Source of the DNA: Bacillota bacterium
GTDB taxonomy: Bacteria; Bacillota; Sulfobacillia; DUMF01
Assembly: GCA_049718765.1 (NCBI GenBank)
Contig: JBNARI010000001.1
Location: 5,508-69,507 of the forward strand
Direction of reading: 5' to 3'
DNA length: 64,000 bases
Shown piece by piece: positions 26,012 to 43,534 of the stretch. The notes under the pieces were generated by a model. The model ran no database searches. It was not told where the DNA came from and saw only the letters and a program-made list of their open reading frames with translations. The position numbers and the translations under genes were made by a program. The stretch's first letter is position 1. The number at the start of each line of letters is the position of its first letter.

Positions 26012-26323
26012 GTGTTGGCTGCCTACCACCTGGCCGGGAAGGGGGTTCTCGGCTTGACCGACGCCATTTGGAGCAGGGTGCTGGAGATTGCCGGATACAT
26101 TAGCGCCCACAGTGCCACAGTGAGGGAAGCTGCCCGGATGTTCAGCATATCCAAGAGCACTGTGCACAAGGACATGACCGAGCGCTTACCCAAGATCAAC
26201 CCATTGCTTTACGCCCAGGTGAAGCAAATCCTGGAAAAGAACAAGGCAGAAAGGCACCTCAGGGGAGGCGAAGCTACGCGCCGGAAATACCTGTGCCTGC
26301 GCTCGGCGGCTTCTTCCCGCTGA
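26012..26323 (+). CDS. spoIIID: Stage III sporulation protein D (mother-cell transcription regulator)
   Basis: HTH FSISKSTVHKDMTERLPKINP and RHLRGGEATRRKY match my memory of SpoIIID. The real start may be TTG 26054. Confidence 0.88.
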   Translation: MLAAYHLAGKGVLGLTDAIWSRVLEIAGYISAHSATVREAARMFSISKSTVHKDMTERLPKINPLLYAQVKQILEKNKAERHLRGGEATRRKYLCLRSAASSR

Positions 26324-26585
26324 GGGCCTCGTAGAGCTTTTGGGCAATGCCAACGCCTCCGGCTTGCGACAGCGCCTGGCCCAGGGCTTCAAGGGCGAAC
26401 TGTTCCAGGAGAGGCCTGCTGGGCGTGTCCACGCCGGAGTCGCTGAGCAATTTGAACCTGGCTTGTTTGAGAAGCTCCACCAGGAACAGCGCCTCGAACT
26501 CCGAACAGGCTTTCCTCAGTTCTTGGTCTGAACTGGGGGTCTTGACACCAGGTACTTGGGTTGACTGCACCTGGGATACGTTCAC
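26274..26585 (-). CDS. Rod-binding (FlgJ N-terminal-like) protein without a hydrolase domain
   Basis: 103 aa. ACSEFEALFLVELLKQAR is the typical Rod_binding signature. Immediately follows flgG. Confidence 0.7.
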   Translation of the reverse strand: MNVSQVQSTQVPGVKTPSSDQELRKACSEFEALFLVELLKQARFKLLSDSGVDTPSRPLLEQFALEALGQALSQAGGVGIAQKLYEALSGKKPPSAGTGISGA

Positions 26586-26591
26586 TTGGGG

Positions 26592-27377
26592 TTACCTCCT
26601 CAGGTTGTTAGCGATCTCCAGCATTTGGTCGGAACTCTGCACCGCCTTGGAATTGAGCTCGTATGCCCTTTGTACGGTGATCATGCGCACCATTTCCTCG
26701 ATGACTGACACGTTGGACCTTTCCAGGAATCCCTGGAGCACGGAGCCGTACCCCGAGGAACCGGGGGTGCCTGAGGAAGCCTCCCCTGAAGCCTCAGACT
26801 CAACGTAGCAGTTGTTGCCCACCTGGAGCAACCCTTCGGGGTTGGCGAACCGGAAAAGCTTCAGCTGGTAGCTGGAACCGTCCCCAGCGGTGATCTCGCC
26901 GTCCATGGACACCTGCACTTGACCAGTGGCCTCTTTGTCCAAGAGCAGGCGGTTGCTGCCATCGTAGAGTACGTAGTAGCCCTCTTTGGTGACCAGGTAG
27001 CCTTCTCCGTCCACGTGGAATGAGCCGTCCCTGGTGTACGCCTTCCTCCCGTCGGGTAGCTTCACCGCGAAGAAACCTTCTCCCTGGATGGCCAGGTCCA
27101 GCGGCCTACCCGTGTTTTCCAGGTTACCCTGTTCGAACAAAGGGCCAACTGTGGTGGCGGTGACGCCAGTCCCCACAACTGTGCCTGCGCCTGCAGCGGG
27201 ATACTGCAATGTGCCCAGGCCGTTGTCCCCAAGTTTCTGGTACACCAGGTCCTTGAAATCCACCCTTGTCTTCTTGAAACCTGGAGTGTTCACATTGGCA
27301 AGGTTGTTGGCTATGGCGTCCATACTAACCTGCTGGGCAATCATGCCCGAAGCTGAAGTCCAAAGAGCCCTTATCAC
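26592..27377 (-). CDS. flgG: Flagellar basal-body rod protein FlgG
   Basis: GTG 27377 lies 8 nt after GGAGGA ((M)IRALWTSASGM). C-terminal VIEEMVRMITVQRAYELNSK motif. Confidence 0.9.
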   Translation of the reverse strand: MIRALWTSASGMIAQQVSMDAIANNLANVNTPGFKKTRVDFKDLVYQKLGDNGLGTLQYPAAGAGTVVGTGVTATTVGPLFEQGNLENTGRPLDLAIQGEGFFAVKLPDGRKAYTRDGSFHVDGEGYLVTKEGYYVLYDGSNRLLLDKEATGQVQVSMDGEITAGDGSSYQLKLFRFANPEGLLQVGNNCYVESEASGEASSGTPGSSGYGSVLQGFLERSNVSVIEEMVRMITVQRAYELNSKAVQSSDQMLEIANNLRR

Positions 27378-27415
27378 TGTGGGAGTCCTCCTCTCTTTCA
27401 CGTTGTTCCACCAAA

Positions 27416-28174
27416 TCATGCCCTACCCAGTTCGTTGACTACTTTGTCAAGGGTTTCGTCCTGAGCGTGAATTGCCCGCTGATTTGCTTCATACGCCCTC
27501 ATCACTGCAATCAGCTCCACCATTTCCTTCACTGGAGAAGTGTTGGAGCCTTCCAGGTAACCTGTGAGCACCTTGCTCTCCGTCTGCACAGGCGAGCCGC
27601 TACTGGCAGTTTCCACAACAGCGCCCCCTTCCACTTTCTGAAGGCCAGCGGGATTTGGAAACCGCACCAATCGTAGGCGAATGGAATGTCCCTGGTCGGT
27701 AACGATGTTGCCATACTCGTCGACCCGAAGCTCGGCCTCTTTGCCAACGCGAATTGGGGACCCCGTGGAGTCTTGCAGTCTTTCCCCAGAGGAAGTGACC
27801 AAGTAGCCAGAAGGGTCTACCCTGAGGGAGGCGGTGCGCAGGTACACGGTGGTGCTGCCTCGGGACGCAGCAATGTACGTGTTGGCTTCCACCAGGGCTA
27901 CATCCAGTTTCCTTCCAGTGGGCTGGAGAACCCCTCCAGAAAGGTCAGCGTACTCTCCTCCCACTACCACCCCAGTTGAGACAAGGCCAAGTGCCCCATG
28001 GTTCGGATTTGCGCTGCGGGTCTCATAGAGTTCCATTTGAGGGTAGCACTGAAGCAGCGCAAAGTCTCTCTTGAACCCAGGGGTTGTGGCGTTTGCCATG
28101 TTGTTGGCAGTCACTTCCTGCCTGAACATTTCCGCCCTCATGCCTGAAGCAGAGGTGTATATGCCCCTGATCAC
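27416..28174 (-). CDS. flgF: Flagellar basal-body rod protein (FlgF/FlhO-like)
   Basis: GTG start 5 nt after GGAGGGA. MIRGIYTSASGM..NNMANATTPGFKRD N-terminus and MVELIAVMRAYEANQR C-terminus. Confidence 0.85.
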   Translation of the reverse strand: MIRGIYTSASGMRAEMFRQEVTANNMANATTPGFKRDFALLQCYPQMELYETRSANPNHGALGLVSTGVVVGGEYADLSGGVLQPTGRKLDVALVEANTYIAASRGSTTVYLRTASLRVDPSGYLVTSSGERLQDSTGSPIRVGKEAELRVDEYGNIVTDQGHSIRLRLVRFPNPAGLQKVEGGAVVETASSGSPVQTESKVLTGYLEGSNTSPVKEMVELIAVMRAYEANQRAIHAQDETLDKVVNELGRA

Positions 28175-28191
28175 GGTGATCCCTCCATAAT

Positions 28192-28223
28192 AAAAAACCT
28201 TCCGACGGCAACGCGCCGGAAGG
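28192..28223 (-). terminator. Intrinsic terminator (riboswitch expression platform)
   Basis: Minus strand reads CCUUCCGGCG-cguugc-CGUCGGAAGG followed by UUUUUU. Ends 5 nt before the flgF SD. Confidence 0.8.
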
Positions 28224-28227
28224 TTTA

Positions 28228-28320
28228 GTCTTCGGCAGCCCGGCCGTCATAGCTCAACGCTTTAGACCCGTGGCTTTGCGTCGCCGTCTTTCGACGGTTT
28301 TGCCCTTTCGGACCCTTCCG
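28228..28320 (-). promoter_or_regulatory. c-di-GMP-I (GEMM-I) riboswitch aptamer
   Basis: Minus strand: GGGCAAAACC, hairpin CCGUC-GAAA-GACGG, GACGCAAAGCC-ACGGGUCUAAAG ... CUAUGAC-GGCCGGGCUGCC. This matches the conserved GEMM-I blocks, including a GNRA loop and a receptor-like UCUAAAG/CUAUGA pair. Confidence 0.82.
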
Positions 28321-28360
28321 TATGTACGATTCTCCACGAATTCGGGAATTCCTTCTTACG

Positions 28361-29389
28361 TCATGCCAGCCTGCTTAGAACAGTTACGTGGTCTTCTTGA
28401 ACGTTTGGGAACTCCAGAGCCCGACCGCAGCCCAGCGCAACGGCTGCTACTGGGTCCTGGAACCTGGTCACGCGCAGGCCGGTCCTTTGGGAGAGGAGCT
28501 CGTCCAAGCCATGGAGCAGGCTTCCACCTCCCGTCAAGGTGACCCCCGAATCGATTATGTCAGCGCACAGTTCGGGAGGCGTGGCTTCAAGCATTTCCAC
28601 AACACCGCGGCAAATCTCCTCCAGCTCTGGCTGGATTGCCCTGCGTATTGCCTCGCTGGTGAGCTGCACGTTCTTGGGCAACCCAGATACCAGGTCGCGG
28701 CCCCTCACCTCGTACTCGTCGTCTCTGCCTGGCACCGCAGTGCCAATATTGATCTTGGCTTCTTCCGCCGAGCGTTCGCCAATTAACACATTGTATTCCC
28801 GCTTCACCATTTGAACGATGGCCTCGTCGAAGGCATCTCCTGCCACGCGGATGGACTTTGACACCACAATGCCTCCAAGGGATATCACTGCCATCTCGGT
28901 GGTACCCCCGCCGATGTCCACCACCATGTGGCCCTTGGGCTTAGCGATGTCCAATCCTGCACCCAGGGCTGCAGCCAAAGGTTCGTACAGTACCGTTGCC
29001 CGGCCAGCGCCCGCCTGCTTGGCGGCCTCGACTACAGCACGCTTCTCCACAGAGGTGGCGCCTGACGGCACTGAAATCACCACGTCGGGCTTGAAGATGC
29101 CCCGCGTGGTTATGCTCAGGAAATGCCTGAGCATGGCCTCTGTGATGTCGTACTCAGCAATAACCCCGTTTCTTAGGGGCCTGATTGCACTGATGTTTCC
29201 AGGGGTCTTCCCAAGCATCCTGCTGGCTTCGTCGCCCACCGCGAGTACCTTGTTTGTGGTAAGGTCCACTGCGACTACCGATGGCTGCTTGAGCACGATC
29301 CCTTTGCCTTGCACGTACACCAGCACTGTAGCAGTACCCAGGTCCACTCCAATTCCCACGCGCACGTGCGTTCCCCCAACCAGCTCCAT
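28361..29389 (-). CDS. mbl: Rod-shape-determining actin homologue MreB/Mbl
   Basis: GIGVDLGTATVLVY, DIGGGTTE and other actin-fold motifs. ATG 29389 has no SD, so GTG 29365 (6 nt after GGGGGA) is an alternative start. Confidence 0.93.
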   Translation of the reverse strand: MELVGGTHVRVGIGVDLGTATVLVYVQGKGIVLKQPSVVAVDLTTNKVLAVGDEASRMLGKTPGNISAIRPLRNGVIAEYDITEAMLRHFLSITTRGIFKPDVVISVPSGATSVEKRAVVEAAKQAGAGRATVLYEPLAAALGAGLDIAKPKGHMVVDIGGGTTEMAVISLGGIVVSKSIRVAGDAFDEAIVQMVKREYNVLIGERSAEEAKINIGTAVPGRDDEYEVRGRDLVSGLPKNVQLTSEAIRRAIQPELEEICRGVVEMLEATPPELCADIIDSGVTLTGGGSLLHGLDELLSQRTGLRVTRFQDPVAAVALGCGRALEFPNVQEDHVTVLSRLA

Positions 29390-29414
29390 GATTTTGGTAT
29401 TGTGAATTTCTAGT

Positions 29415-29984
29415 TCAGTTCCGTTTTTCCTGCCTACATAACATAAGCCACTGTATGAGAATAAACCCGCCAAGGCATATTGCCACGTCCCCAGGGCTTA
29501 CTACCACTGGCTGCAAGAATGGCAATGGCACTGGGATCACGTCCCCCAGGAAAGCAAGCCTGGTTGCCCTGTTAGCCAGCTGGTGGGTGAAGCTGGTGCC
29601 CTGTGCCAGCAGCTGGTACTCGGGAATCTTGTCCAGGCCCACTGAAGCCAGGGCGGTGGGAGAAATGGGCATTCTACCCCCATTCACGAAGATCACCCAT
29701 GCGTTTGAGAACACCCCAATCAATACCCAAGAAAAGCCAGGCAAATTCTCCAGGTTGGCCGCACAAACCAGGATCAACATGCCGTGGGACAAGAGGTTCA
29801 GGACCATGGCTGTGGTGTGGCTGAGCAAGTTACTACCTGCAAGATAATGGAGGGCCAGACGAAGGGCCACTGCAGTTGCCAGCGCCCACCAGTGCCTTAT
29901 TGACAAGCTTGCCAGGCGACTCAGCTTGCCACCTCTGATTAGAGCCACAAAAATCGAAACAATAAGTGTTAAGAAGAAAACCAA
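29415..29984 (-). CDS. Small polytopic membrane protein (DUF5317-like by recollection)
   Basis: TTG start 7 nt after AGGAGGAG. 189 aa with about 5 TM segments and a C-terminal VVSPGDVAI motif. Family assignment is unverified. Confidence 0.6.
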   Translation of the reverse strand: MVFFLTLIVSIFVALIRGGKLSRLASLSIRHWWALATAVALRLALHYLAGSNLLSHTTAMVLNLLSHGMLILVCAANLENLPGFSWVLIGVFSNAWVIFVNGGRMPISPTALASVGLDKIPEYQLLAQGTSFTHQLANRATRLAFLGDVIPVPLPFLQPVVVSPGDVAICLGGFILIQWLMLCRQEKRN

Positions 29985-31242
29985 GGCCGTACTCCTCCTG
30001 TTCCTTTACTAGGTCCACCAGCACTTCGAGTAAGTTGCTGTCGAACTGCAGGCCACAATTGCGCTTGAGCTCCGCCAGAGCCTCCTGGGATGACATCCCC
30101 TTACGGTAGGGCCTGTCCGTCCTCAGGGCAACGTAGCACTCCGCGATTGCAATGATTCGGGCGCCTAGGGGGATTTGGTCGCCCCTGAGTTGGTCTGGGT
30201 ATCCCTTCCCATCCCACCTTTCGTGGTGATGGCGCACCAACGTGGCAGCTTCCTTGAGGGCCTCTACTTTTGCAGCAATGGCAGCTCCCACTTCAGGGTG
30301 GGATGCCACCACACTGAACTCCTCCAGCTTAAGAGGGGTTGGCCTGCTTGTTAGCTCCTCTGGAATGCCCACGAATCCGAGGTCATGCAGAAGTCCACCG
30401 TAGTATACCGACCTTACGTAGGACCTAGGTAGCAACAGCTTGTCCGCTATCCCTGCAGCAAGGCAAGCCACCCAAAGGCCATGCTCGTAGGAGTATTCCT
30501 GCTTGCGGGATATAAGGGGCACCAGGGTGGACAGGGTGCTTGAGAACACCTCTTGCATCCGGCAGGAAAGCGCCGAAGCGTAAACCGCAAGCCCAGTGAT
30601 GACCGCAAGCACTGGAATCCAGAGGGACATGCTTGCTTTGCTGGCTAAGAACATGCTGCCAAGGAGAAACGCCACCAAGGCGATCACTGGCAGCTGGGGC
30701 ACAAATTGCCTGAGTTCCCTGCGCCAAGCGGCCAAAAGGCTTACTTTGAGGCGCACAGCTTCAACCTGGGACGGCAGCAGGGTGTAAGCAACCACGAGCA
30801 CCGCCCCTGCAGCAGCGCCGCGAAGCATGGTGGGTGCTTGCTGCGCCGTGAGTACAGACTCGACCAACTTGGCGGCAAAGACAGACAGCACCGAAGTGGA
30901 AGTGGGCAGGAGACAGCGCCTGATGCCCCTGGGCAAGCAACTTAGGGTGCCAGCCACGAAAGCCGCAACGCTAGCACAGGCTGTGTCCAGCACGAAAACT
31001 GACGCAGCCAGCGCAGCAACGCCCAAGGACGAGTTAACCAATAGGCGTGACAATTCTAAGGGGGTCACCGAGGCCATGGTCTCTATTAGAGTGAACATAA
31101 TTAGAGAAGGAACATGGCTAGCCCGGATGTGGGCCACACTGAGACCGGTCACTGTGAGGGCGGTAACAGACAGGGCAAGTGCACAGCGCTTGTGAGCGCG
31201 CCGTATGCAGCTAAACTTTGGATTGATCAGCCTCGTTATCAC
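29833..31242 (-). CDS. Membrane-anchored HD-GYP domain protein (putative c-di-GMP phosphodiesterase), paralogue 1
   Basis: Multi-TM N-terminus. LHDLG, HHHERWDGKGYP, IPLGARIIAIAECYVALRTDRPYR. The last ~50 codons overlap the next gene. Confidence 0.85.
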   Translation of the reverse strand: MITRLINPKFSCIRRAHKRCALALSVTALTVTGLSVAHIRASHVPSLIMFTLIETMASVTPLELSRLLVNSSLGVAALAASVFVLDTACASVAAFVAGTLSCLPRGIRRCLLPTSTSVLSVFAAKLVESVLTAQQAPTMLRGAAAGAVLVVAYTLLPSQVEAVRLKVSLLAAWRRELRQFVPQLPVIALVAFLLGSMFLASKASMSLWIPVLAVITGLAVYASALSCRMQEVFSSTLSTLVPLISRKQEYSYEHGLWVACLAAGIADKLLLPRSYVRSVYYGGLLHDLGFVGIPEELTSRPTPLKLEEFSVVASHPEVGAAIAAKVEALKEAATLVRHHHERWDGKGYPDQLRGDQIPLGARIIAIAECYVALRTDRPYRKGMSSQEALAELKRNCGLQFDSNLLEVLVDLVKEQEEYGLGFLLNTYCFDFCGSNQRWQAESPGKLVNKALVGAGNCSGPSSGPPLSCR

Positions 31243-32488
31243 CTGGCTCGAGTTCCTTCCAACAAGAGATCATCACCTTTACGACTTCGGGGTCGAACTG
31301 AGTGCCGGCGCACCTCTGGAGCTCCTCGATGGCCCTGCTCGTGGGCAACGGGCTCTTGTAAGGCCTTTCGGAGATCATGGCGTCGAACGCGTCCGCCACC
31401 GAGATGATCCTTGCTCCCAGGGGGATCTGGTTTCCCTTCAGCCCTTCGGGGAACCCCGTTCCATTGTACCATTCGTGATGGTAGCGCACCCAGCTTGCCG
31501 CATTGCCAAGCATCTTTATTCCAGTGATGATGTCTGCCCCCAGGGTAGGGTGGGCTTTCATCTCTATGTATTCATTGATAGTGTATATCCCCGGCTTTTT
31601 CAACACTGCATCCCTTATTGCCACCTTACCTATATCATGTAAAAGCCCTATGTACTCCAGGAGCTCTATTTCCTGTTCTGGAAGCCGAAGTGCTCTGCCA
31701 ACGGCCGCTGACAGCCGCGCTACCCTCTCTGAATGGCCACGGGTGCACGGGTCCTTGGCGTCCAGGGCACGGACTAGGGCACGGATTGTCTCCAGGAAAA
31801 CCTGCCTGAGCTCAATGTACCGGCCGAAGGATTGCCTGGCAGCGAGGAGGGGAAGGAAGAACAGGGCAATGCTTACGGGACCCGAATTGACCAGCACTCC
31901 CGACATGATTGCTGCCAGGGGTACCAGGGCCAGCAGGCTGGGGATGCTCCACATGAAGTTCGTGCGCCACAAAGTGCGGAAGGACACCCCACGTTGCAGC
32001 GACAACGCGGTCATTACCAGTCCGGCGTTTACCAGAGTGTAGGTGAGCGCGCATGCTACAAGAGGAATTACGCCGCGCTGGAGGTTTAGCGAGCCAGGTA
32101 CGCCGCCAAGCCATTGGAAGATGCTGCCTGCTATTGCAGTAGAGATAGTAAACGCGGCCCTGTTGAAAAGGAAGTACTGTCGTGGGACACTTGGGGCAAG
32201 CTCTCTCGCAGAAATCGTTGCCAAACAAGCAAGCCAGGTGGCCTTAGACGGACCATACACCATTGCGGTGGTGTAAATGAGCGGCGAGCTCACTGATACC
32301 GAGCCCCCGCCTCTGGGCAGTGGCACTGCCAAGTGTTCGCTTACAAATATGAGTAACCCCATTACAGTAAGTCCCTGCAGGTCTTTGGGGCTCATTGGGA
32401 AAGGATCAAACACGAGAAAAAGAATCCCGCCAGCCGCTATGCACGCGCTAACGTAGATCTGGAGCTTGCGTTTGGACCCGCGCACCAA
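31211..32488 (-). CDS. Membrane-anchored HD-GYP domain protein (putative c-di-GMP phosphodiesterase), paralogue 2
   Basis: Multi-TM N-terminus. LHDIGK, HHEWYNGTGFP (GYP replaced by GFP), IPLGARIISVADAFDAMISERPYK. Start is TTG 32488 or GTG 32485, after GGAGG. Confidence 0.88.
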   Translation of the reverse strand: MVRGSKRKLQIYVSACIAAGGILFLVFDPFPMSPKDLQGLTVMGLLIFVSEHLAVPLPRGGGSVSVSSPLIYTTAMVYGPSKATWLACLATISARELAPSVPRQYFLFNRAAFTISTAIAGSIFQWLGGVPGSLNLQRGVIPLVACALTYTLVNAGLVMTALSLQRGVSFRTLWRTNFMWSIPSLLALVPLAAIMSGVLVNSGPVSIALFFLPLLAARQSFGRYIELRQVFLETIRALVRALDAKDPCTRGHSERVARLSAAVGRALRLPEQEIELLEYIGLLHDIGKVAIRDAVLKKPGIYTINEYIEMKAHPTLGADIITGIKMLGNAASWVRYHHEWYNGTGFPEGLKGNQIPLGARIISVADAFDAMISERPYKSPLPTSRAIEELQRCAGTQFDPEVVKVMISCWKELEPGDNEADQSKV

Positions 32489-32712: not shown

Positions 32713-33351
32713 CTACCTGATTATTCCTTCGACGGTACGATTAATCGCGTTAAGAGCTGCTCTCACACCGGCTACGGCGATTTCTGGCTCAGGTGAGTTG
32801 TTGAGCACACAGGTGCCGCTCACCACCTTTGCTATATCACTCGGCACTCTGATTTGGACCAACGCAACAAGAGCTGCCAAGTCGTACAAGGTCACTTTCC
32901 TCATCTCGATGAGGCTGAACCCCTTGATCCCAAGGAGCGACTCCACAGCCGTCAGAGCTGCCCGAGCTGCAGTAGCTGCCACAGCAAGCTCTTCAGTGCT
33001 CCCTTGACAGTTCGAACGTGCCGTCTTGCCGTGGAGAGAGAGGCTTACTTCCACTTCCGCGTGATTCCGGTGGAAGCTAGCTGTCACTTCCTCCAGTCGA
33101 ATTCTGGGTGTCAGCACGCATGCCTCCAGGGGCTCGTCAAGTTGCGCCACTGCTACCCTGGAGACGGTCGCCCCTCGGAGAAGGTCCTGAAGCACGGTGC
33201 GCACGTCCCGCTCAACCTGGGATACGGGCCGTGAGTGGCCGGCAAGTACGTACGCTTCGAAAGTGTTGTCGCCACTCGGAACCACTCTGGCCGCGACTAC
33301 ACCCTTTATTCTCTTGAGCAAAGCTTCGCACTTCTTGACTGTGGTATCCAA
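32713..33351 (-). CDS. Hypothetical protein, no family recognised
   Basis: 212 aa. TTG start 7 nt after GGGAAGGA. Own upstream spacer after the hpf terminator. Coding-like composition. Appears to be two or three alpha/beta modules. Confidence 0.6.
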   Translation of the reverse strand: MDTTVKKCEALLKRIKGVVAARVVPSGDNTFEAYVLAGHSRPVSQVERDVRTVLQDLLRGATVSRVAVAQLDEPLEACVLTPRIRLEEVTASFHRNHAEVEVSLSLHGKTARSNCQGSTEELAVAATAARAALTAVESLLGIKGFSLIEMRKVTLYDLAALVALVQIRVPSDIAKVVSGTCVLNNSPEPEIAVAGVRAALNAINRTVEGIIR

Positions 33352-33520
33352 CGCGCAGTCCTTCCCAGACAGTTATCATGTAGATTCGATCAATGGTTAC
33401 GCTTTTCCTCCATATCCTACAAAGCCCACAAACTTTCCTGCCAATGGGTGTAGCTGGATGAGGCCCGATGGAGCGCTGGAACTGAATTTGCCACGCCTGG
33501 CTTCTGTTGGCTGCTGCGCC

Positions 33521-34195: not shown

Positions 34196-34225
34196 TTGAC
34201 ATCCTCCCAGTTACAGATGTATGAT
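34196..34225 (+). promoter_or_regulatory. Putative sigma-A promoter of metK
   Basis: TTGACA (34196-34201), 18-nt spacer, TATGAT (34220-34225). Confidence 0.55.
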
Positions 34226-34275: not shown

Positions 34276-35448
34276 GTGGTGAGGTTGAGCAGGAGAAAGC
34301 TGTTCACTTCTGAGTCCGTCACCGAGGGGCACCCCGACAAGGTGGCCGACCAGATTTGCGATGCAATACTCGACGCCATCCTCGAGAAAGATCCCGTAGC
34401 ACGTGTAGCGTGTGAATGCACCGTGAAGACAGGCCTTGTGCTCATAACCGGAGAAATCACCACCGAGTGCTACGTGGACATGCCTCGAATTGCCCGGGAA
34501 ACCCTGCGCGAGATTGGGTATACCAGGGCTAAGTATGGCTTCGACTGCGACACTTGCGCGGTGCTCACTGCCATAGAGGAACAGTCGCCCGACATTGCTC
34601 AGGGCGTTAACGAGGCATTGGAAGTCAGGGCAACGGGTGGAGAAGAGAAAGTGCTTGGCGCTGGAGACCAGGGGCTGATGTTTGGCTTTGCATGCAAGGA
34701 AACGCCTACCCTAATGCCCATGCCCATATACCTGGCCCATGGATTGGCTCGCCGACTTGCTCAGGTAAGAAAGTCAGGGGAGTTGCCCTACTTGCGGCCA
34801 GACGGCAAGACCCAAGTCACCGTGGAATACGAAGACGACGTTCCAGTCCGGGTGGATGCGGTAGTTGTGTCTGCCCAGCATGCGCCAGATGTGGATCAAA
34901 AGCAAATACGTGACGACATAATCGAGCATGTGGTCAGCAAGGTAATTCCCAATCACCTCCTGGACGAAAGGACCAGGTATTTCGTTAACCCCACCGGAAG
35001 GTTCGTTATCGGTGGACCCCAGGGAGATTCTGGCCTGAGCGGCAGGAAGATCATCGTGGACACGTACGGCGGCTACGCCAGGCATGGGGGCGGTTCTTTC
35101 TCTGGGAAGGACCCAACCAAAGTGGACAGGTCTGGTACGTACGCTGCAAGGTACGTGGCAAAGAACATAGTTGCCAGCGGGCTTGCGTCCAGATGCGAGG
35201 TTCAAGTGGCCTACATCATTGGGGTGGCCAACCCAGTGTCCATCATGGTGGACACCTTTGGCACCGGCGTGATCCCGGACCAGGAGATCGAGCGCCTTGT
35301 GATGTCTAACTTTGATTTCCGTCCAGGTGCAATAATTGAGAGATTCAACTTGAGGCGCCCCATGTATAGGCAAGTTGCGGTGTACGGTCACTTCGGCCGG
35401 GACGATCTGGACCTTCCTTGGGAGAAGACGGACCTTAAACTTGGCTGA
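34276..35448 (+). CDS. metK: S-adenosylmethionine synthase
   Basis: [20 protein letters not shown], and GGGSFSGKD in place of the usual GGGAFSGKD. GTG 34276 or TTG 34285 as start. Confidence 0.97.
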
Positions 35449-37827: not shown

Positions 37828-39225
37828 GTGAGTACTTTCCGAGGCATTGAGATTGGCAGATCGGCAATTTCCACTCACAAGCTAGCCCTGGACGTGGTTG
37901 CCCAAAATGTGGCCAGTGCCAACGTGTCGGGCTATTCGCGTCAGAGCGTACAAATGAAAGCTGTGAGCTACGCCCAGTCTGGACTGAGCGACGTGCAGAA
38001 GTTCACCGGTGCAGGGGTCACAGTGGAAAGGGTGGCCAGGCTACGGGATGCCTTCTTGGACAAGCAGATTCGGCAGGAGACAGCCACGAAGGGCTGGGCT
38101 GACGCAAGGCTTGAGACTTTGAACCAAGTGGAAGTGGTGATGAATGAGCTCGAGAGCACTGGCATTAGGGCGCGGTTGGACGAATTCTGGAATGCGCTGC
38201 AGGAACTTTCGCTGAACCCCGAAAGCGTTAGCGTGCGTGCGACCGTGGTACAGCGAGGCGAAGCACTGTGCGAGGCGTTCAGGCACACGGTTGAATGGCT
38301 CAGGCAGCTTCAGGAGAACCTCAACTACCAGATCCAGACCACAGTTGGTCGGATTAACGACATTGCCTCACAGCTTGCTGAGCTGAACGACCAGATTGTG
38401 AGGGCGAGAGCCAGGGGTGAGTGCTCGAACCTGCTGGAGGACCGCCGGGACCTTCTCATTGATGAGCTGTCGGAGTTTGGGCCAGTTGACGTCACGGTTC
38501 GGACTGAAGGCGCAGCAATCATCAAGCTCGGGGGCTTTCCCATTGTGGACGCCTACGGCTTGGAGAAGCTGGAGTTCCAGGCAGTGGGGGCTTCTGGATA
38601 TCCCGTTGTGACCTGGGGGCCCGAAGGGCGAGTTTTGCAGATCGGCACCGGCAGGCTTAAGGGTTTGTTGGAAGCCAGGGACGAGCTTGCAGCTTCGTAC
38701 ATCGAAGACCTAAACCAGCTTGCTCGCAGCATCGTCGACGAAGTGAATGCGCTTCACAGGAAAGGTTATGGGCTTGACGGCACCACAACTGGGTTGGATT
38801 TCTTCGTCATGGGGAAAGACGCGAGTGACTTGCAGGTGCGCGAAGATATCCTTAAGAACCCCTCATTGGTTGCTGCATCGGCAAGCGGTGAGCCAGGCGA
38901 TGGCAGTAACGCCCTGGCAATGGCTCAGCTCAAACAGAAGACACTGATGGTGAATGCCACTGCGACGTGGGACGATTACATAAGGTCTATCACGGCCAGA
39001 CTTGGCATTGAGACTCAGGAAGCCAAGCGAGTTAGCGAGAACCAGGAGTTGCTGCTGAAGGATTTGGAGAACAGGCGAGAGTCGGTCTCCGGTGTTTCCC
39101 TGGACGAAGAGGCCACCGAGATGATCAAACTCCAGCATGCTTATAACGCTGCTGCAAGGCTCATTACCGCCTACGATGAGCTGCTTGAGGTGCTGATTTC
39201 CCGCACTGGTTTGGTAGGCAGATGA
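37828..39225 (+). CDS. flgK: Flagellar hook-associated protein 1
   Basis: MSTFRGIEIGRSAI N-terminus. C-terminal SGVSLDEEATEMIKLQHAYNAAARL. Confidence 0.93.
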   Translation: MSTFRGIEIGRSAISTHKLALDVVAQNVASANVSGYSRQSVQMKAVSYAQSGLSDVQKFTGAGVTVERVARLRDAFLDKQIRQETATKGWADARLETLNQVEVVMNELESTGIRARLDEFWNALQELSLNPESVSVRATVVQRGEALCEAFRHTVEWLRQLQENLNYQIQTTVGRINDIASQLAELNDQIVRARARGECSNLLEDRRDLLIDELSEFGPVDVTVRTEGAAIIKLGGFPIVDAYGLEKLEFQAVGASGYPVVTWGPEGRVLQIGTGRLKGLLEARDELAASYIEDLNQLARSIVDEVNALHRKGYGLDGTTTGLDFFVMGKDASDLQVREDILKNPSLVAASASGEPGDGSNALAMAQLKQKTLMVNATATWDDYIRSITARLGIETQEAKRVSENQELLLKDLENRRESVSGVSLDEEATEMIKLQHAYNAAARLITAYDELLEVLISRTGLVGR

Positions 39226-39250
39226 GCTGTAGGTCGAGGGGGGCGTGCCT

Positions 39251-40141
39251 ATGAGGATCACCGACAGCATGAGCGTGAACAACCTGCGCTACAACCTTTC
39301 CAAAATTGGAGAGAGGTTGTCCAGGGCCCAGGACATGCTTTCTTCGGGCAAGAGCGTGAACAGGCCCTCTGATGACCCGCGAAAGGCTATGACCAGCCTA
39401 CACATGAAGTCCTTGATAGAGCAGAACCGCAGATACCAAAGCAATGTCCAGGCTGGTATCGATTGGCTGAGCACAACGGACCAGGCTTTGGGAAGCGTGA
39501 ACGAGGCCTTGCAGAGAGCACTGGAACTCGGGATTACCGGCTCCAACAGTGTGCTGCCCGAGGAAAGCCGCCAGGCGATTGCTGCTGAGCTTGAGCAGGT
39601 GCTCCAGCACCTGGTACAGGTGGCCAATACAGAGATTGGTGGACGATATGTGTTTGCTGGGACAAGCACACTGCAGCAGCCGTTTGAGATCGATCAGTCG
39701 AGCCTTTCCGTTTCATACTTTGGCGACGGAGGTAGGCTCGTTTGGGAAATCAGCCGCGGCGCAAGCGTTATTGTGAACGTGGCTGGTACGGAGTTGTTTG
39801 GCTCTAACATGGAAATGTTTAGCGACCTGGTGAAGCTGAGGCAGTCGGTCCTTGCGGGTGACGTTCAGGCCACACAGCAGTGCATTTCCAGGGTGCAGGA
39901 ACACCTAGACAACGTGCTCCGGTACCGGGCCGAGGTAGGCGCTCGGATCAACCGACTACAGGTAACCCTGGATCGTCTCCAACAAGTGGAGATCGAGTAC
40001 ACCCGTGTACTGTCCGAGACGGAAGATGCGGATTTAGCTGGGACCATGGTTACACTGAACACAGAGGAAATCACTTACCGCGCGGCGCTGGAAGTAGGAG
40101 CGAGGATTGCTCAGCCTAGTTTGATCGATTATCTAAGATGA
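39251..40141 (+). CDS. flgL: Flagellar hook-associated protein 3
   Basis: ATG 39251 gives MRITDSM... Flagellin-like N- and C-terminal helices. About 296 aa. Confidence 0.9.
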   Translation: MRITDSMSVNNLRYNLSKIGERLSRAQDMLSSGKSVNRPSDDPRKAMTSLHMKSLIEQNRRYQSNVQAGIDWLSTTDQALGSVNEALQRALELGITGSNSVLPEESRQAIAAELEQVLQHLVQVANTEIGGRYVFAGTSTLQQPFEIDQSSLSVSYFGDGGRLVWEISRGASVIVNVAGTELFGSNMEMFSDLVKLRQSVLAGDVQATQQCISRVQEHLDNVLRYRAEVGARINRLQVTLDRLQQVEIEYTRVLSETEDADLAGTMVTLNTEEITYRAALEVGARIAQPSLIDYLR

Positions 40142-40176
40142 GTCTTTTCCAAGCGTTCCGACGTGCTGGCTAACGT

Positions 40177-40232
40177 GAGCCCGCGGACGCAAGTAAAGTG
40201 CTTGAGCTTGTGGCCGTGGGCTCGTTGTTTTG
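40177..40232 (+). terminator. Possible terminator after flgL
   Basis: GAGCCCGCGG (40177-86) pairs with CCGTGGGCTC (40214-23; one G-U), then GTTGTTTTGCC. The loop is large. Confidence 0.4.
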
Positions 40233-40355
40233 CCATAAGTTTTGTTTGGGGCTGGCCGTGTTGAGCGTACTCAGGGCACAGCCATGACCTGGCACCTGCT
40301 GCAAGCCCAGGGGCTTTTGCGTTTTGTTGTGGCGGTTGTTGGTGTGGGGACGGGC

Positions 40356-40383
40356 TAAAACCTGGTGCTGTCACTGTCGATAA
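40356..40383 (+). promoter_or_regulatory. Sigma-28 (SigD-type) promoter of the flagellin gene
   Basis: TAAA (40356-59), 15-16-nt spacer, GTCGATAA (40376-83). About 100 nt upstream of the flagellin start. Confidence 0.65.
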
Positions 40384-40483
40384 ACATAGTGAGCACAGGA
40401 GTAAGGCAACACCAGAGCGCTTTTCTCGTGGCGCCCGGGAAGAGTGGCAGCGGGTTGTAGGTGAGAGTAAGGAGGGTAATGTG

Positions 40484-41605
40484 ATGAGGATTAACCACAA
40501 TATTAACGCACTGAATGCGTGGAGAAACTTGACCGTCACTGACGGGTCTCTTGCGAAGTCCCTTGAAAGGCTGTCTTCGGGTTACAGGATCAATAAGGCT
40601 GCAGACGATGCCGCAGGGTTGGCCATCTCAGAAAAGATGAGGGCCCAAATCAGGGGGCTGCAGCTGGCGCAACGTAACGCACAGAACGGTATTTCGCTAA
40701 TCCAGACGGCTGAGGGTGCATTGAACGAAACCCATGCGATTCTGCAGAGGATGAGGGAACTTGCAGTTCAGGCTCTGAACGATACAAACACCGACGAGGA
40801 CCGTGCAGCTCTGGATAAGGAGTATCAACAACTGGTTAATGAAATTACGAGGATTGCTAACACTACCGAGTTCAACACTACGAAGCTCCTGGATGGGTCG
40901 TTGGGAGCGAGCATTGAGAATGTCGGGTCTAGCTTGACACCGAGCAACGGTATCGTAAGCATTGAGCTTAACGGCGCAGCTGTGGCTAATGGCTATACGA
41001 TCACTGTAGAAGACGGCACCACTGGCAAGAAGATAACGGTGTCCCAGGGGTCAGTGTCGGAGACGATTGACAATGTGAGCGTGCCCAGTGGCTTTAACAC
41101 AACCACACTCAACTTTGCGTCCCTTGGCATTAAGTTGACTGTCAACAGCGCTTTGACAAACATCTCTTTGAACAACACGTTCGATGTAACTGCCTCAGGT
41201 AGCATGAACCTGCAAATTGGAGCAAACGCTACACAAACGATGGCCATATCCATCTCCGACATGAGAGCGAGCGCTCTGGGAGGCTCCACGAAGTTGAACT
41301 CGACCAGCGTGGCCACGGCAAGCGGCGCACAGACGGCGTTGACCTCCATAGACACAGCTATTGACGAAGTGTCCACGCTAAGAGCTCAACTAGGCGCATA
41401 CCAGAACAGGCTCGAACACACAGTATACAACCTGGGAGTTGCTGCAGAGAACCTCACTGCGGCAGAATCCAGGATCCGTGACGTGGACATGGCGCTTGAG
41501 ATGGCGGAGTTCACAAAGAACCAGATCCTGGTGCAGTCTGGCACTGCTATGTTGGCACAGGCGAACATGCAGCCGCAAGCGATCCTCAGGCTGCTGCAGG
41601 CCTAA
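40484..41605 (+). CDS. fliC: Flagellin
   Basis: ATG 40484 lies 8 nt after GGAGG. MRINHNINALNA..LSSGYRINKAADDAAGLAISEKM N-terminus. LGAYQNRLEH .. ILVQSGTAMLAQAN C-terminus. Confidence 0.97.
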   Translation: MRINHNINALNAWRNLTVTDGSLAKSLERLSSGYRINKAADDAAGLAISEKMRAQIRGLQLAQRNAQNGISLIQTAEGALNETHAILQRMRELAVQALNDTNTDEDRAALDKEYQQLVNEITRIANTTEFNTTKLLDGSLGASIENVGSSLTPSNGIVSIELNGAAVANGYTITVEDGTTGKKITVSQGSVSETIDNVSVPSGFNTTTLNFASLGIKLTVNSALTNISLNNTFDVTASGSMNLQIGANATQTMAISISDMRASALGGSTKLNSTSVATASGAQTALTSIDTAIDEVSTLRAQLGAYQNRLEHTVYNLGVAAENLTAAESRIRDVDMALEMAEFTKNQILVQSGTAMLAQANMQPQAILRLLQA

Positions 41606-41622
41606 CAACATAATACTGATGG

Positions 41623-41651
41623 GGGCTGGCCAGTTCCCGGCTGGCCAGCCC
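41623..41651 (+). terminator. Strong hairpin (terminator/attenuator) between flagellin and fliD
   Basis: GGGCTGGCCAG pairs perfectly with CTGGCCAGCCC (11 bp) around a 7-nt loop. The downstream T-tract is weak. Confidence 0.5.
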
Positions 41652-41695
41652 AAATAGTTTGAGGAGACACGAGAAACTGGGAGGGGGCGGAGCAC

Positions 41696-43534
41696 GTGGG
41701 CGAAGTTAGACTGAGCGGGCTAATCTCTGGAATGGACACCGATGACGTCATTTCCAAGCTGATGGCGATTGAAAGGAAGCCCGTGGACTTGCTGCAAAGC
41801 CAGAAAGCCCAGCTGCAGTCCAAGAGGGAAGCGTGGAACAGGGTATACAGCGCTCTAACAACGCTGGATGCGAAGCTGGCAGGCCTTACCACGGTGGACA
41901 CATACCTTTCGGCCAAGGCGTCTGTGGATGATTCGTCGGTGGTTCAGGTTTCTGCATCCAGCAGCGCTTCCCCTGGGAAATTAGCCCTTGAAGTAATGCA
42001 GCTTGCCACTGCGCACGTGGTGGCCTCAGCAGCCCAGTCCAGCACCACCCAGGCCATCGGAATCGCAGGTTCGCCCATGATCAACGGAAAGGCCCTCCTA
42101 ATCTCATCGTCGGACTCGCTGGAGACCATTGCAGCCAAGATCAATTCGCTCGACGCAGGTGTAAGCGCAACAGTAGTCAAAGTGGACTCCTCAAGCTGGA
42201 AACTGGTGGTCAGCTCCAAGCAAACTGGGGCAGCTGCGCAGATAACTCTTGTCGACGACGGCGGAGCCCTAGAGGCACTGGGGCTGGTTGTGAACGGCCA
42301 AGCAAACACCGTGCAGGAAGCCCAAGATGCCAGGTTCAAGGTGAATTCCATTGAGGTCCAGCGGGCATCCAACACCGTGTCCGACGTGGTAACAGGCCTT
42401 ACCTTCACCCTGAAAAACATCGGCACCACTGTGGTAACTGTGGAAAGGGACTATTCTGCAGTGGTTTCAGCCGTGAAGGCATTTGTTAACGCTTACAACA
42501 GCGCGGTGGATGCCATCAAGAATGAAACTTATTACGATGCGACCAACAAGAAGGCCGGTGCATTGCTCGGTGAGACATCGCTGATGAGTCTGCAAAACAA
42601 GATGAGGCAGGTGCTAGTCTCGGCCGTTCCCGGGCTTCCACAGTCCCTGAGCCGGGCTGCAGACGTGGGCCTGACCACGGAGGCCTACGTTCCGGGTAGT
42701 GGCTCTGGGGAGCACCTCAAACTGGATGAGGGAAAACTCACTGCGGCGTTGGAGTCGGATCCCGAGGCGGTGATGAAGTTGTTTGGAGCGAGGCGTGTGA
42801 ACGTGGCGCTTGCCTCGAGCGGCGCAAGTGCTACTGGTTTGGATGAGTACGGCAATACCAATGAGTACGACGCACAGGTGTACTCGGCGTCAGGGGCAAT
42901 TAACGGAGATACCTCCAGCCTAAGATGGGGGACCACTGGCGGGGGATGGAACGATGGCACGGCTGGAGTGTACCCTGATTACCTGCAAATCGTGTTTGCC
43001 GGGCAGCGCACCATAGACACAGTTAAAGTCTACACTCTTAACTCAGAGGCTTTTCCGGCCAACCAGTACGGCGTGCGTGACCTCCGGGTACAGTACTGGG
43101 ACGGCACCACGTGGATAACCGTTTCCACCGTGTCAGGAAACACGTCCGGGGTTGTGAGCTGCAGTTTCGATCCCGTGACCACCGACCGGATAAGGGTTGT
43201 CGTGGACGCCACCAACGGTCAGGGAGACTACTCGCGCATCACGGAAGTTGAGGTATACCAGCGGGATGCGGGACTGGCTTCGGCAATTTCCGAACTGCTC
43301 AAGAGCTTTACGTCCTCGGGTGGCGTGATAAAGAACAAACAGGACACAATCGACAGAACTGTATCCAACATAGACAGCCGCATTGAGGACTGGGAGCGAA
43401 GGCTGGAGCTGCGGGAAGAAGCTCTGAGGAAGCAGTTTAACTCCATGGAAGTAGCACTCAACAAGCTCAAAACCCAAAGCGCCTGGCTGAGCATTCAGTT
43501 CGCCAGCATCTACGGAAGCGGTGAGAAATCATGA
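41696..43534 (+). CDS. fliD: Flagellar filament cap protein FliD with an inserted beta-sandwich (lectin-like) domain
   Basis: GTG start after GGGAGGGGG. N-terminal GLISGMDTDDVISKLMAIERKP. C-terminal coiled coil. 612 aa, versus the usual ~450-500. Confidence 0.9.
   Translation: MGEVRLSGLISGMDTDDVISKLMAIERKPVDLLQSQKAQLQSKREAWNRVYSALTTLDAKLAGLTTVDTYLSAKASVDDSSVVQVSASSSASPGKLALEVMQLATAHVVASAAQSSTTQAIGIAGSPMINGKALLISSSDSLETIAAKINSLDAGVSATVVKVDSSSWKLVVSSKQTGAAAQITLVDDGGALEALGLVVNGQANTVQEAQDARFKVNSIEVQRASNTVSDVVTGLTFTLKNIGTTVVTVERDYSAVVSAVKAFVNAYNSAVDAIKNETYYDATNKKAGALLGETSLMSLQNKMRQVLVSAVPGLPQSLSRAADVGLTTEAYVPGSGSGEHLKLDEGKLTAALESDPEAVMKLFGARRVNVALASSGASATGLDEYGNTNEYDAQVYSASGAINGDTSSLRWGTTGGGWNDGTAGVYPDYLQIVFAGQRTIDTVKVYTLNSEAFPANQYGVRDLRVQYWDGTTWITVSTVSGNTSGVVSCSFDPVTTDRIRVVVDATNGQGDYSRITEVEVYQRDAGLASAISELLKSFTSSGGVIKNKQDTIDRTVSNIDSRIEDWERRLELREEALRKQFNSMEVALNKLKTQSAWLSIQFASIYGSGEKS

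Follow-up and report, generated by a model that had tools for sequence, protein, structure and literature searches.

A canonical class-I cyclic diguanylate (c-di-GMP) riboswitch, followed by an intrinsic terminator, lies between mbl and a flgF-like gene on the minus strand of a 64,000-nucleotide stretch of a Bacillota bacterium (GenBank assembly GCA_049718765.1, contig JBNARI010000001.1, positions 5,508 to 69,507; hereafter the window). The two elements are predicted to control a unit of three genes: flgF-like, flgG and a short gene weakly resembling the N-terminal part of flgJ. On balance, we favor the reading that the terminator is the platform of an OFF switch. The spacer that holds both elements is 186 nucleotides (nt) long (28175-28360) and runs from the mbl stop codon to the GTG start of the flgF-like gene. 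Its minus-strand sequence, as given in an earlier account made from the letters alone (the sequence-only reading), was reproduced exactly.

The class proposed in the sequence-only reading was borne out by the covariance-model search suggested there. RF01051 (c-di-GMP-I, or GEMM-I) gave a clear match over the full model (Table 1), and this was the sole Rfam match in the window (Rfam 15, gathering thresholds). The conserved blocks that had been named, GGCAAA, the CCGUC-GAAA-GACGG hairpin, GACGCAAAGCC, ACGGGUC and GCCGGGCUGCC, are present and aligned to the consensus. Helix P1a is expected to have a 2-bp stem, a 3-nt AAA internal loop and a 5-6-bp stem with a GNRA tetraloop, and in the Rfam alignment it reads GC / AAA(A) / CCGUC-GAAA-GACGG / GAC / GC. 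A tetraloop receptor had also been proposed. The receptor motif, CUAAG ... UAUG, was found in P1b as GUCUAAAGC ... GCUAUGAC, aligned to the consensus guCUAAggc ... gcuAuGac. The ligand-contact positions, read from the Rfam alignments, are G28304, A28277 and C28235, which we take to be the equivalents of G20, A47 and C92 in the numbering of Vc2. The aptamer also stands in a 5' regulatory position, with the terminator 5 nt later and then the Shine-Dalgarno sequence and start codon of the flgF-like gene. By sequence and predicted structure the element thus has every feature by which c-di-GMP-I riboswitches are recognized. Its identity as a c-di-GMP-I aptamer is almost certain, and it can be expected to bind c-di-GMP.

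Close relatives of this locus are few. Among 5.8 billion proteins searched, only three were close to the FlgF-like protein (79%, 67% and 65% identity), and the next were at most 44% identical. The related loci are L002 (Logan SRR6186653), L003 (Logan SRR31392928) and L001, a biogas-fermenter metagenome contig from the European Nucleotide Archive that is identical in this region to L004, the metagenome-assembled genome 'Bacillota bacterium AS04akNAM_41'. With the window they make four lineages and four distinct sequences. In L002, L001/L004 and L003 a match to the c-di-GMP-I clan (70.9-79 bits) and then a terminator stand directly ahead of the flgF-like orthologue, whose N-terminus, MIRGIYTSASGM, is invariant among the relatives. 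A search of metagenome contigs with the FlgF alignment of the clade found no further close relatives (best match 39% identical), and covariation therefore rests on the four distinct sequences. Every pair modelled in the aptamer and in P1 is retained in these four (100%), and the aptamer and terminator are nearly invariant while the FlgF proteins are 65-79% identical and the flanks cannot be aligned. Open reading frames (ORFs) that run through the aptamer (58-74 amino acids (aa) in L001 and L003) were considered as leader peptides and rejected, being alike merely via conservation of the aptamer.

Rfam models were applied to 119 related loci. The riboswitch was found in none of the 99 more distant flgF-like loci, made up of 79 genome loci and 20 metagenome loci. 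The genome loci, each taken with 3 kb of flank, encode FlgF-like homologues 30-41% identical and come from diverse Bacillota, Halanaerobiales, Vampirovibrionales and Spirochaetes. As far as these sequences reach, the link of GEMM-I to these rod genes appears confined to a small uncultured Bacillota clade from anaerobic digesters.

Terminator, predicted antiterminator helices and modelled direction

The sequence-only reading had described a 10-bp hairpin followed by six U residues. The hairpin and the U6 (28197-28192) stand, but the stem is longer: the terminator scan gave 13 pairs between 28226 and 28195, seven of them G-C, with a loop of 6 nt and then TTTATTATGG, and the 10 bp are the G+C-rich core of this stem. 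The free energy of the hairpin is about -20 kcal/mol. The terminator is common to all relatives, with 90% of the alignment cells paired. The Shine-Dalgarno sequence GGAGGG (28186-28181) begins 5 nt past the U-tract and is followed by the GTG (28174-28172), just as had been proposed. We are highly confident that this Rho-independent terminator is the expression platform.

In the minimum-free-energy (MFE) structure of the free leader, two antiterminator helices form together. The first has 11 bp and joins the aptamer strand GACGGCGACGC (28288-28278) to GCGUUGCCGUC (28214-28204), which spans the entire terminator loop plus the final nucleotide of the 5' arm and the first four of the 3' arm. The helix is paired at 100% in the four distinct sequences, and its changes among relatives comprise one compensatory exchange of A-U to G-C and three one-sided exchanges to G-U. 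The junction part of its aptamer strand carries the neighbors of the A47 equivalent. The second helix is a local hairpin in which GCCGAAG pairs with CUUCCGGC; inspection of the sequences showed similar pairings in L001 and L003. According to the model, both helices consume nucleotides that the ligand-bound aptamer needs, and folding of successive prefixes of the transcript indicated that the antiterminator takes over once the terminator loop has been transcribed. The aptamer and the terminator do not exclude each other. The last nucleotide of canonical P1 is 28228, ahead of the terminator's G+C core, which begins at 28223, and therefore aptamer and terminator can coexist, in a joint structure of -44.0 kcal/mol.

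We calculated equilibrium partition functions for transcripts that end at the U-tract and begin 7-10 nt past a -10-like element described below. For the window, the probability of the terminator was 0.01-0.02 in the free RNA and 0.998 when the aptamer and P1 were held. The corresponding values were 0.07-0.44 and 0.998 for L002, 0.18-0.64 and 0.997-0.998 for L001, and 0.000 and 0.998 for L003. The direction was unchanged when modelled at 55°C. Holding the aptamer cost 3.5-9.2 kcal/mol; Vc2-type aptamers bind c-di-GMP at nanomolar affinity or tighter, which is enough to pay this cost. In a control, the terminator was swapped for 200 hairpins of the same base-pair composition with a shuffled loop. 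With these hairpins the median free-RNA terminator probability was 0.83, only 0.5% fell below 0.05, and none of the 200 was as low as the real terminator (0.006). The same control in L002 gave 1 of 200 as low as the real one. Therefore, the complementarity between the terminator and the aptamer core exceeds chance.

Whether c-di-GMP switches the rod genes on or off had been called undecidable from sequence. That holds experimentally, but the modelling consistently favors OFF, and we consider it fairly probable that high c-di-GMP leads to termination and leaves the rod genes untranscribed. c-di-GMP usually represses motility. The OFF direction agrees with this, and also with the class-I switches of Clostridioides difficile. 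The functional ones are seven in number and all OFF, including Cd1 on flgB (PMC6366702).

In the mechanism that we propose, transcription would start at about 28320, from a sigma-H-like promoter just past the mbl stop codon, and the leader would thus open with the P1 strand. The aptamer would fold first, and the emerging CCUUCCG would pair transiently with the 5' CGGAAGG and lengthen P1, which may prolong the ligand-sensing time in the window and L002 lineages. Without c-di-GMP, the segment 28214-28204 would invade GACGGCGACGC and the P1 3' strand GCCGAAG would pair with the terminator 5' arm, so that the terminator would be blocked and the rod genes transcribed. With c-di-GMP bound, the aptamer nucleotides would be locked, the 13-bp terminator would form, and transcription would end at about 28192.

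Own promoter or read-through from mbl

The sequence-only reading placed the riboswitch inside an operon. Part of this stands, as mbl lies upstream on the same strand and read-through is possible because the terminator scan found no terminator-like site between mbl and the aptamer. However, the neighbors of the related loci and a conserved motif in the spacer make an own promoter likely, and we lean towards one for the riboswitch unit. The ORF upstream of the riboswitch in L002 is 95% identical to the Mbl of the window, so adjacency to mbl is common to these two lineages. In L004 the gene ahead of the riboswitch is divergent and encodes a 370-aa protein that is not Mbl (by eye only, its N-terminus is short-chain-dehydrogenase-like). 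In L003 the gene ahead likewise lies on the other strand and is unrelated. Therefore, an own promoter is needed in the L001/L004 and L003 lineages.

When the upstream regions of the four lineages were aligned, one conserved feature emerged from otherwise unalignable sequence, a bipartite block with a constant spacing of 12 nt. In the window, the -35-like GAAGGAATT and the -10-like GAGAAT are separated by CCCGAATTCGTG. The three relatives share the -35-like GAAGGATTT, followed by the spacer TCGAAGTTCGCG and GAGAAT in L002, TGAAGGAGCTTG and GCGAAG in L001/L004, and TGGTGACCGCTG and GCGAAC in L003. The block resembles SigH promoters mapped in C. difficile, among them spoIIAA (GAAGGAATA ... TAGAAT), CD2447 (GAAGGAATT ... 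TAGAAA), frr (... GAGAAT) and ssuA (... TCGAAG) (PMC7438776 Table 3). It shares its -35 sequence with mapped SigH promoters, and the distance from AGGA to GAAT in the window equals that of spoIIAA. The window and L002 match in full the pattern taken for a sigma-H (Spo0H)-type promoter, with RNAGGAWWW at -35, RNNGAAT at -10 and an AGGA-to-GAAT offset of about 21-22 nt. The pattern AGGAWWW-N13-15-GAAT occurs twice on both strands of the 64 kb, at 28353-28329 ahead of the riboswitch and at 33409-33384, against 0.29 expected, and 2 of 100 shuffles reached two matches. From this block, transcription would start at about 28321-28319, in the first nucleotides of CGGAAGG.

A near-perfect copy of the motif, AAAAGAAGGAATTTCAATAAAAATGTAGAATTT, stands in Thermoanaerobacterium (L007, 1892-1916, plus strand) directly ahead of mbl and about 1.1 kb upstream of the flgF-like gene. 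Sigma-H-like matches at a similar offset (about 1716-1937) occur in L016, L023, L027, L037, L048, L057 and L077; of these eight loci, L007 was the one inspected. The matches suggest that mbl-flhO-flhP is commonly transcribed by sigma-H in lineages of this type; in the clade of the window the motif lies between mbl and flgF. The second match in the window (33384-33409, minus strand) reads GGAGGAAAAGCGTAACCATTGATCGAAT and lies just past the hpf terminator (33558-33528), about 33 nt upstream of the TTG at which ORF 32713-33351 begins. This ORF encodes a 212-aa protein without a Pfam or NCBIfam match and heads the string of HD-GYP, DUF5317 and mbl genes, all of which may be driven by sigma-H.

Three points weigh against this promoter. 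The -10-like element ends in GAAG in L001 and GAAC in L003, not in GAAT; no sigma-70 promoter turned up when the spacer of the window and the intergenic regions of L004 and L003 were scanned; and the sigma factor is assigned by resemblance. Manual comparison with sigma-54 (GG-N10-GC) and sigma-D/sigma-28 (TAAA-N15-GCCGATAA) promoters gave no convincing match, but L001 and L003 have a partial CGA core at the -10 position, which leaves sigma-D a slight possibility.

It is possible, though we think it doubtful, that the riboswitch is a purely operon-internal attenuator. All transcription of flgF-flgG would then come by read-through from the HD-GYP/DUF5317/mbl genes, and the conserved block would act as an RNA element or bind a protein. 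In favor of this reading, the genes share a strand with little space between them, no terminator-like site separates mbl from the aptamer, L002 has kept the mbl adjacency with a nearly identical Mbl, the sigma-70 scan of the spacer was empty, and the block holds GAAGG, which on inspection is complementary to CCUUC of the terminator 5' arm. This reading does not fit L004 and L003, where the upstream gene is divergent or unrelated and a promoter is required in the spacer. Nor does it account for a block of fixed spacing that is the sole conserved sequence there, that is rare in the window, that agrees with mapped SigH promoters in both sequence and spacing, and that occupies a promoter-like position in Thermoanaerobacterium.

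The upstream block, (A)GAAGGA(A/U)UU at 28343-28353, also resembles the 3' arm and tail of the terminator, GGAAGGUUUUUU (28192-28204). The pairing of its AGAAGG with the terminator CCUUC comprises 5 bp in the window, 6 in L001 and 9 of 10 in L003. A promoter explains the fixed bipartite spacing better than pairing of a distant RNA segment with the terminator 5' arm would, though the block may have an RNA role in read-through transcripts. In L001 (about 306-327) and L004 (about 2797-2818) a terminator-like hairpin, AUCCUUC-CCCAA-GAAGGAU followed by UUUU, lies over the -35-like block; the upstream gene there is divergent.

Rival readings of the switch

The sequence-only reading had derived mutually exclusive helices from a repeated heptamer. 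The positions are as it claimed: CGGAAGG at 28320-28314 and at 28204-28198, and CCUUCCG at 28223-28217. The helix formed by the 5' copy is real, in that it extends P1 (GUC/GAC and CG/CG) across a UAAA bulge and gives the MFE structure of transcripts ending at 28219-28210. The helix is not shared by the whole clade. Only the window and L002 have the 5' copy; L001/L004 and L003 lack it while retaining aptamer and terminator, and 67% of the alignment cells in the clade are paired.

This helix could serve an ON switch, in which c-di-GMP would stabilize P1 with its 7-bp extension (28320-28314/28223-28217), occupy the terminator 5' arm and turn the rod genes on at high c-di-GMP. The repeat is exact, abuts P1 directly and is kept in L002 despite differing flanks. 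Terminators are known in class-I ON switches, Bc2 of Bacillus thuringiensis being one (PMC6366702), and many GEMM terminators compete with the aptamer (Weinberg 2007, PMC1950547). We nevertheless consider an ON switch unlikely. With the aptamer held, the terminator beats extended P1 by 6-9 kcal/mol, at -44.0 versus -35.3 kcal/mol for the bare elements and -49.9 versus -43.6 kcal/mol when the rest of the RNA was allowed to fold, and the terminator probability of 0.998 was reached although the extension was free to form. In addition, an AA bulge and the UAAA bulge separate the extension from the ligand pocket, and ligand binding would probably not protect it from displacement by the identical 3' copy. 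An ON switch would also mean that c-di-GMP activates the rod genes of the flagellum, opposite to the usual direction.

Several observations weigh against the OFF direction. It is derived from nearest-neighbor equilibrium models, whereas riboswitch decisions are kinetic. To form, the antiterminator has to open P1a, a GNRA-capped hairpin that has already folded, and this step could be slow. When the modelled RNA carried a further 64-88 nt at its 5' end, as a read-through transcript from mbl would, termination was predicted even for the free RNA (probability of 0.55-0.997). Because the predictions flip with the 5' end, we relied on the 5' ends defined by the promoter. In L001, the free-RNA terminator probability was just moderately lowered, and the covariation among the four sequences is weak, as 130 of 500 shuffles reached the observed score. 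Finally, the CGGAAGG repeat abutting P1 is unlikely to have arisen by chance (about 1% by a rough estimate), and it resembles an ON-type design.

It is very improbable that the aptamer is a decaying relic that no longer regulates, with the hairpin acting as a constitutive attenuator or as the terminator of mbl. Some class-I riboswitches of C. difficile are non-functional (PMC6366702), and long 5' leaders were modelled to terminate whatever the state of the aptamer. A relic would hardly stay near-invariant in aptamer and terminator across lineages whose FlgF proteins and flanks have diverged so far. The terminator is also kept where mbl is not upstream, and it is specifically complementary to strands inside the aptamer.

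An A at the position equivalent to G20 is typical of the GEMM-Ib aptamers that select 3'3'-cyclic GMP-AMP (3'3'-cGAMP). The chance that the ligand is 3'3'-cGAMP, or an unknown ligand of the 'GGC' variant, is slighter still: within the clan, RF03167 (c-di-GMP-I-GGC) ranks first for L001, L003 and L004 (70.9-71.6 bits, gathering score 59), but the window and L002 score best with RF01051, the GGC-diagnostic position (GACGC-G-AA instead of the canonical GACGC-A-AA, at the A47 equivalent) is A in 5 of 5 sequences, and the G20 equivalent, described as a determinant of selectivity (PMC9262584), is G in 5 of 5. The 'GGC variant' label for L001, L003 and L004 was rejected because of the A at the diagnostic nucleotide, and the top rank of RF03167 reflects the rest of the model. 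With A at that site and G at the G20 equivalent, all five sequences were treated as canonical c-di-GMP aptamers.

Gene neighborhood and known systems

Table 1. Features of the riboswitch locus and of the genes around it (window coordinates).
Feature	Position	Strand	Evidence or detail
c-di-GMP-I (GEMM-I) aptamer	28231-28314	-	RF01051, 79.9 bits (gathering score 35), E=4.3e-14, full model (positions 1-87 of 87)
P1 pairing	G28313-U28312-C28311 with G28230-A28229-C28228; C28310-G28309 with C28234-G28233	-	
P1a	28303-28278	-	GAAA loop
P1b	28275-28237	-	tetraloop receptor
5' CGGAAGG, 5' strand of extended P1	28314-28320	-	pairs with CCUUCCG 28223-28217
Aptamer strand GACGGCGACGC (P1a 3' arm and junction), predicted antiterminator 5' strand	28278-28288	-	MFE and conservation
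GCCGAAG (P1 3' strand and C92 equivalent), predicted second local antiterminator hairpin	28230-28236	-	pairs with CUUCCGGC 28222-28215
Intrinsic terminator	28192-28226	-	5' arm 28226-28214, loop 28213-28208, 3' arm 28207-28195, U-tract to 28192
Shine-Dalgarno GGAGGG and GTG start of FlgF-like gene	28172-28186	-	sequence
Candidate sigma-H-type promoter	28329-28355	-	-35-like GAAGGAATT 28355-28347, 12-nt spacer, -10-like GAGAAT 28334-28329; conservation and resemblance
MreB/Mbl ORF	28361-29473	-	Pfam MreB_Mbl, E=1.8e-130
FlgF-like proximal rod protein, 252 aa, first regulated gene	27416-28174	-	Pfam Flg_bb_rod, Flg_bbr_C, LlgE_F_G_D1; NCBIfam FlgEFG subfamily, 150.5 bits (cut-off 70)
FlgG distal rod protein (FlhP-like)	26592-27419	-	NCBIfam TIGR02488 flgG, 283.9 bits (equivalog cut-off 252.75)
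103-aa protein, weakly like FlgJ N-terminal (rod-binding) region	26274-26585	-	NCBIfam TIGR02541, E=1e-7, below cut-off
DUF5317 membrane protein	29415-29984	-	E=2.5e-34; between second HD-GYP gene and mbl, overlapping both listed ORFs
HD-GYP	29833-31242	-	HD_5 domain
MASE9+HD-GYP	31211-32488	-	HD_5 domain with MASE9 membrane sensor domain

The genes on the minus strand follow the order MASE9+HD-GYP, HD-GYP, DUF5317, Mbl, riboswitch, FlgF-like, FlgG and flgJ-N-like. The sequence-only reading had the riboswitch gating flgF-, flgG- and flgJ-like genes; the first two assignments hold and the third remains a weak match, below the cut-off of its family. flgG overlaps the stop codon of the flgF-like gene by 4 nt. 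The flgJ-N-like gene is the last of the rod unit and is convergent with spoIIID (26012-26323, plus strand), and both L001 and L002 have a gene for 112-113 aa at the equivalent position. Upstream, two HD-GYP genes and mbl had been recognized correctly, but the DUF5317 gene between the second HD-GYP gene and mbl had been missed. The two HD-GYP proteins are candidate c-di-GMP phosphodiesterases that adjoin an RNA predicted to sense c-di-GMP. In the tandem HD_5 proteins, the first reads HHEWYNGTGFPEG by eye (GFP, not GYP) and the second HHERWDGKGYPDQ.

On the plus strand ahead of spoIIID lie genes for an M23 peptidase, spoIID, murA and V-type ATPase genes. By gene content, the neighborhood is the murA/spoIID/spoIIID/mbl/flhO/flhP arrangement of spore-forming Bacillota. 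The mbl-flhO-flhP region of Bacillus subtilis likewise has murA, spoIID, an M23 peptidase gene, spoIIID, mbl and two rod genes. FlgF-like and FlgG presumably match FlhO and FlhP by their position on the B. subtilis map, and we know of no riboswitch between mbl and flhO in B. subtilis.

The opposite strand, some 10 kb away from the riboswitch, carries late flagellar genes (37828-43534, plus strand), so filament genes are present in this organism. They are flgK, a flgL-like gene whose 298-aa product has flagellin N and C domains, the gene for a 374-aa flagellin, and fliD, whose product includes an additional F5/8 type C (discoidin) domain. metK, for S-adenosylmethionine (SAM) synthetase, lies at 34276-35448 on the plus strand. 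Of the sigma-70-like sites in this region, the best match stands ahead of it (34196-34225, TTGACA-18-TATGAT, 11 of 12 positions). No SAM riboswitch was found ahead of metK at the Rfam gathering threshold. A SAM riboswitch lies within a few kb of flgF in several of the distant flgF loci (L010, L020, L022, L036 and L056).

The closest counterpart described is Cd1 (Cdi-1-3) of the C. difficile flgB operon. Like the element described here, it joins a GEMM-I aptamer to an intrinsic terminator ahead of flagellar basal-body genes in a member of the Bacillota. In both, the aptamer and terminator are separate and can coexist, and the antiterminator uses nucleotides that the ligand-bound aptamer needs (PMC9262584, PMC6366702). 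Both are OFF switches, by prediction only in our case. The early-flagellar operon under Cd1 in C. difficile is 23 kb long, contains sigD and has a SigA promoter, whereas here the unit has three genes and probably a sigma-H-like promoter. The main antiterminator predicted here pairs the P1a 3' arm and junction with the terminator loop and 3' arm, besides using the P1 3' strand. The flagellar invertible switch is not present, and the riboswitch adjoins two HD-GYP genes, DUF5317 and mbl upstream.

The likeness to Vc2 of Vibrio cholerae lies in the three-helix architecture, the GNRA tetraloop with its receptor and the equivalents of G20, A47 and C92. The gene context differs, and both class-I switches of V. 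cholerae act without transcription termination (PMC6366702). In the OFF switch Cd1 the aptamer and terminator coexist, whereas in the ON switch of pilM they are mutually exclusive (PMC9262584). The pilM-type GEMM-Ib (3'3'-cGAMP) switch of Geobacter has a homologous aptamer fold and a terminator platform, and the extended P1 of the window resembles its ON-type overlap of P1 and terminator. The canonical aptamer and the terminator of the window do not overlap, however, and the G20 equivalent is G, not A.

The riboswitch class and its flagellar theme are already known: both have been recognized since 2007-2008. In an early survey, flgB, flgC and flgG were listed among GEMM-associated families (Weinberg 2007 Table 2, PMC1950547), and GEMM-I on flagellar genes of a clostridial-type organism is unsurprising. 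What is specific here is that the switch sits only on the FlhO/FlhP-type rod genes, which adjoin mbl in spore-forming Bacillota, and not on a large early flagellar operon, and that its distribution is restricted to one clade (four lineages, against 0 of 99 other flgF loci).

A bolder version, which we hold to be improbable, is that the locus forms a second, dedicated rod-assembly checkpoint. A sigma-H-like factor of stationary phase or sporulation entry would give the two distal rod proteins a supply of their own, which c-di-GMP would gate. Read-through and promoter-initiated transcripts would respond differently, because the model predicts different terminator behavior for long and short 5' ends. 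The most unconventional form of this version would have c-di-GMP turn the rod genes on via extended P1.

If the OFF direction and the sigma-H-like promoter are both true, the locus would be a compact case of second-messenger gating of one assembly step, the completion of the rod. It would also offer a natural template for the study of an antiterminator whose invasion of the aptamer goes beyond P1 into the core.

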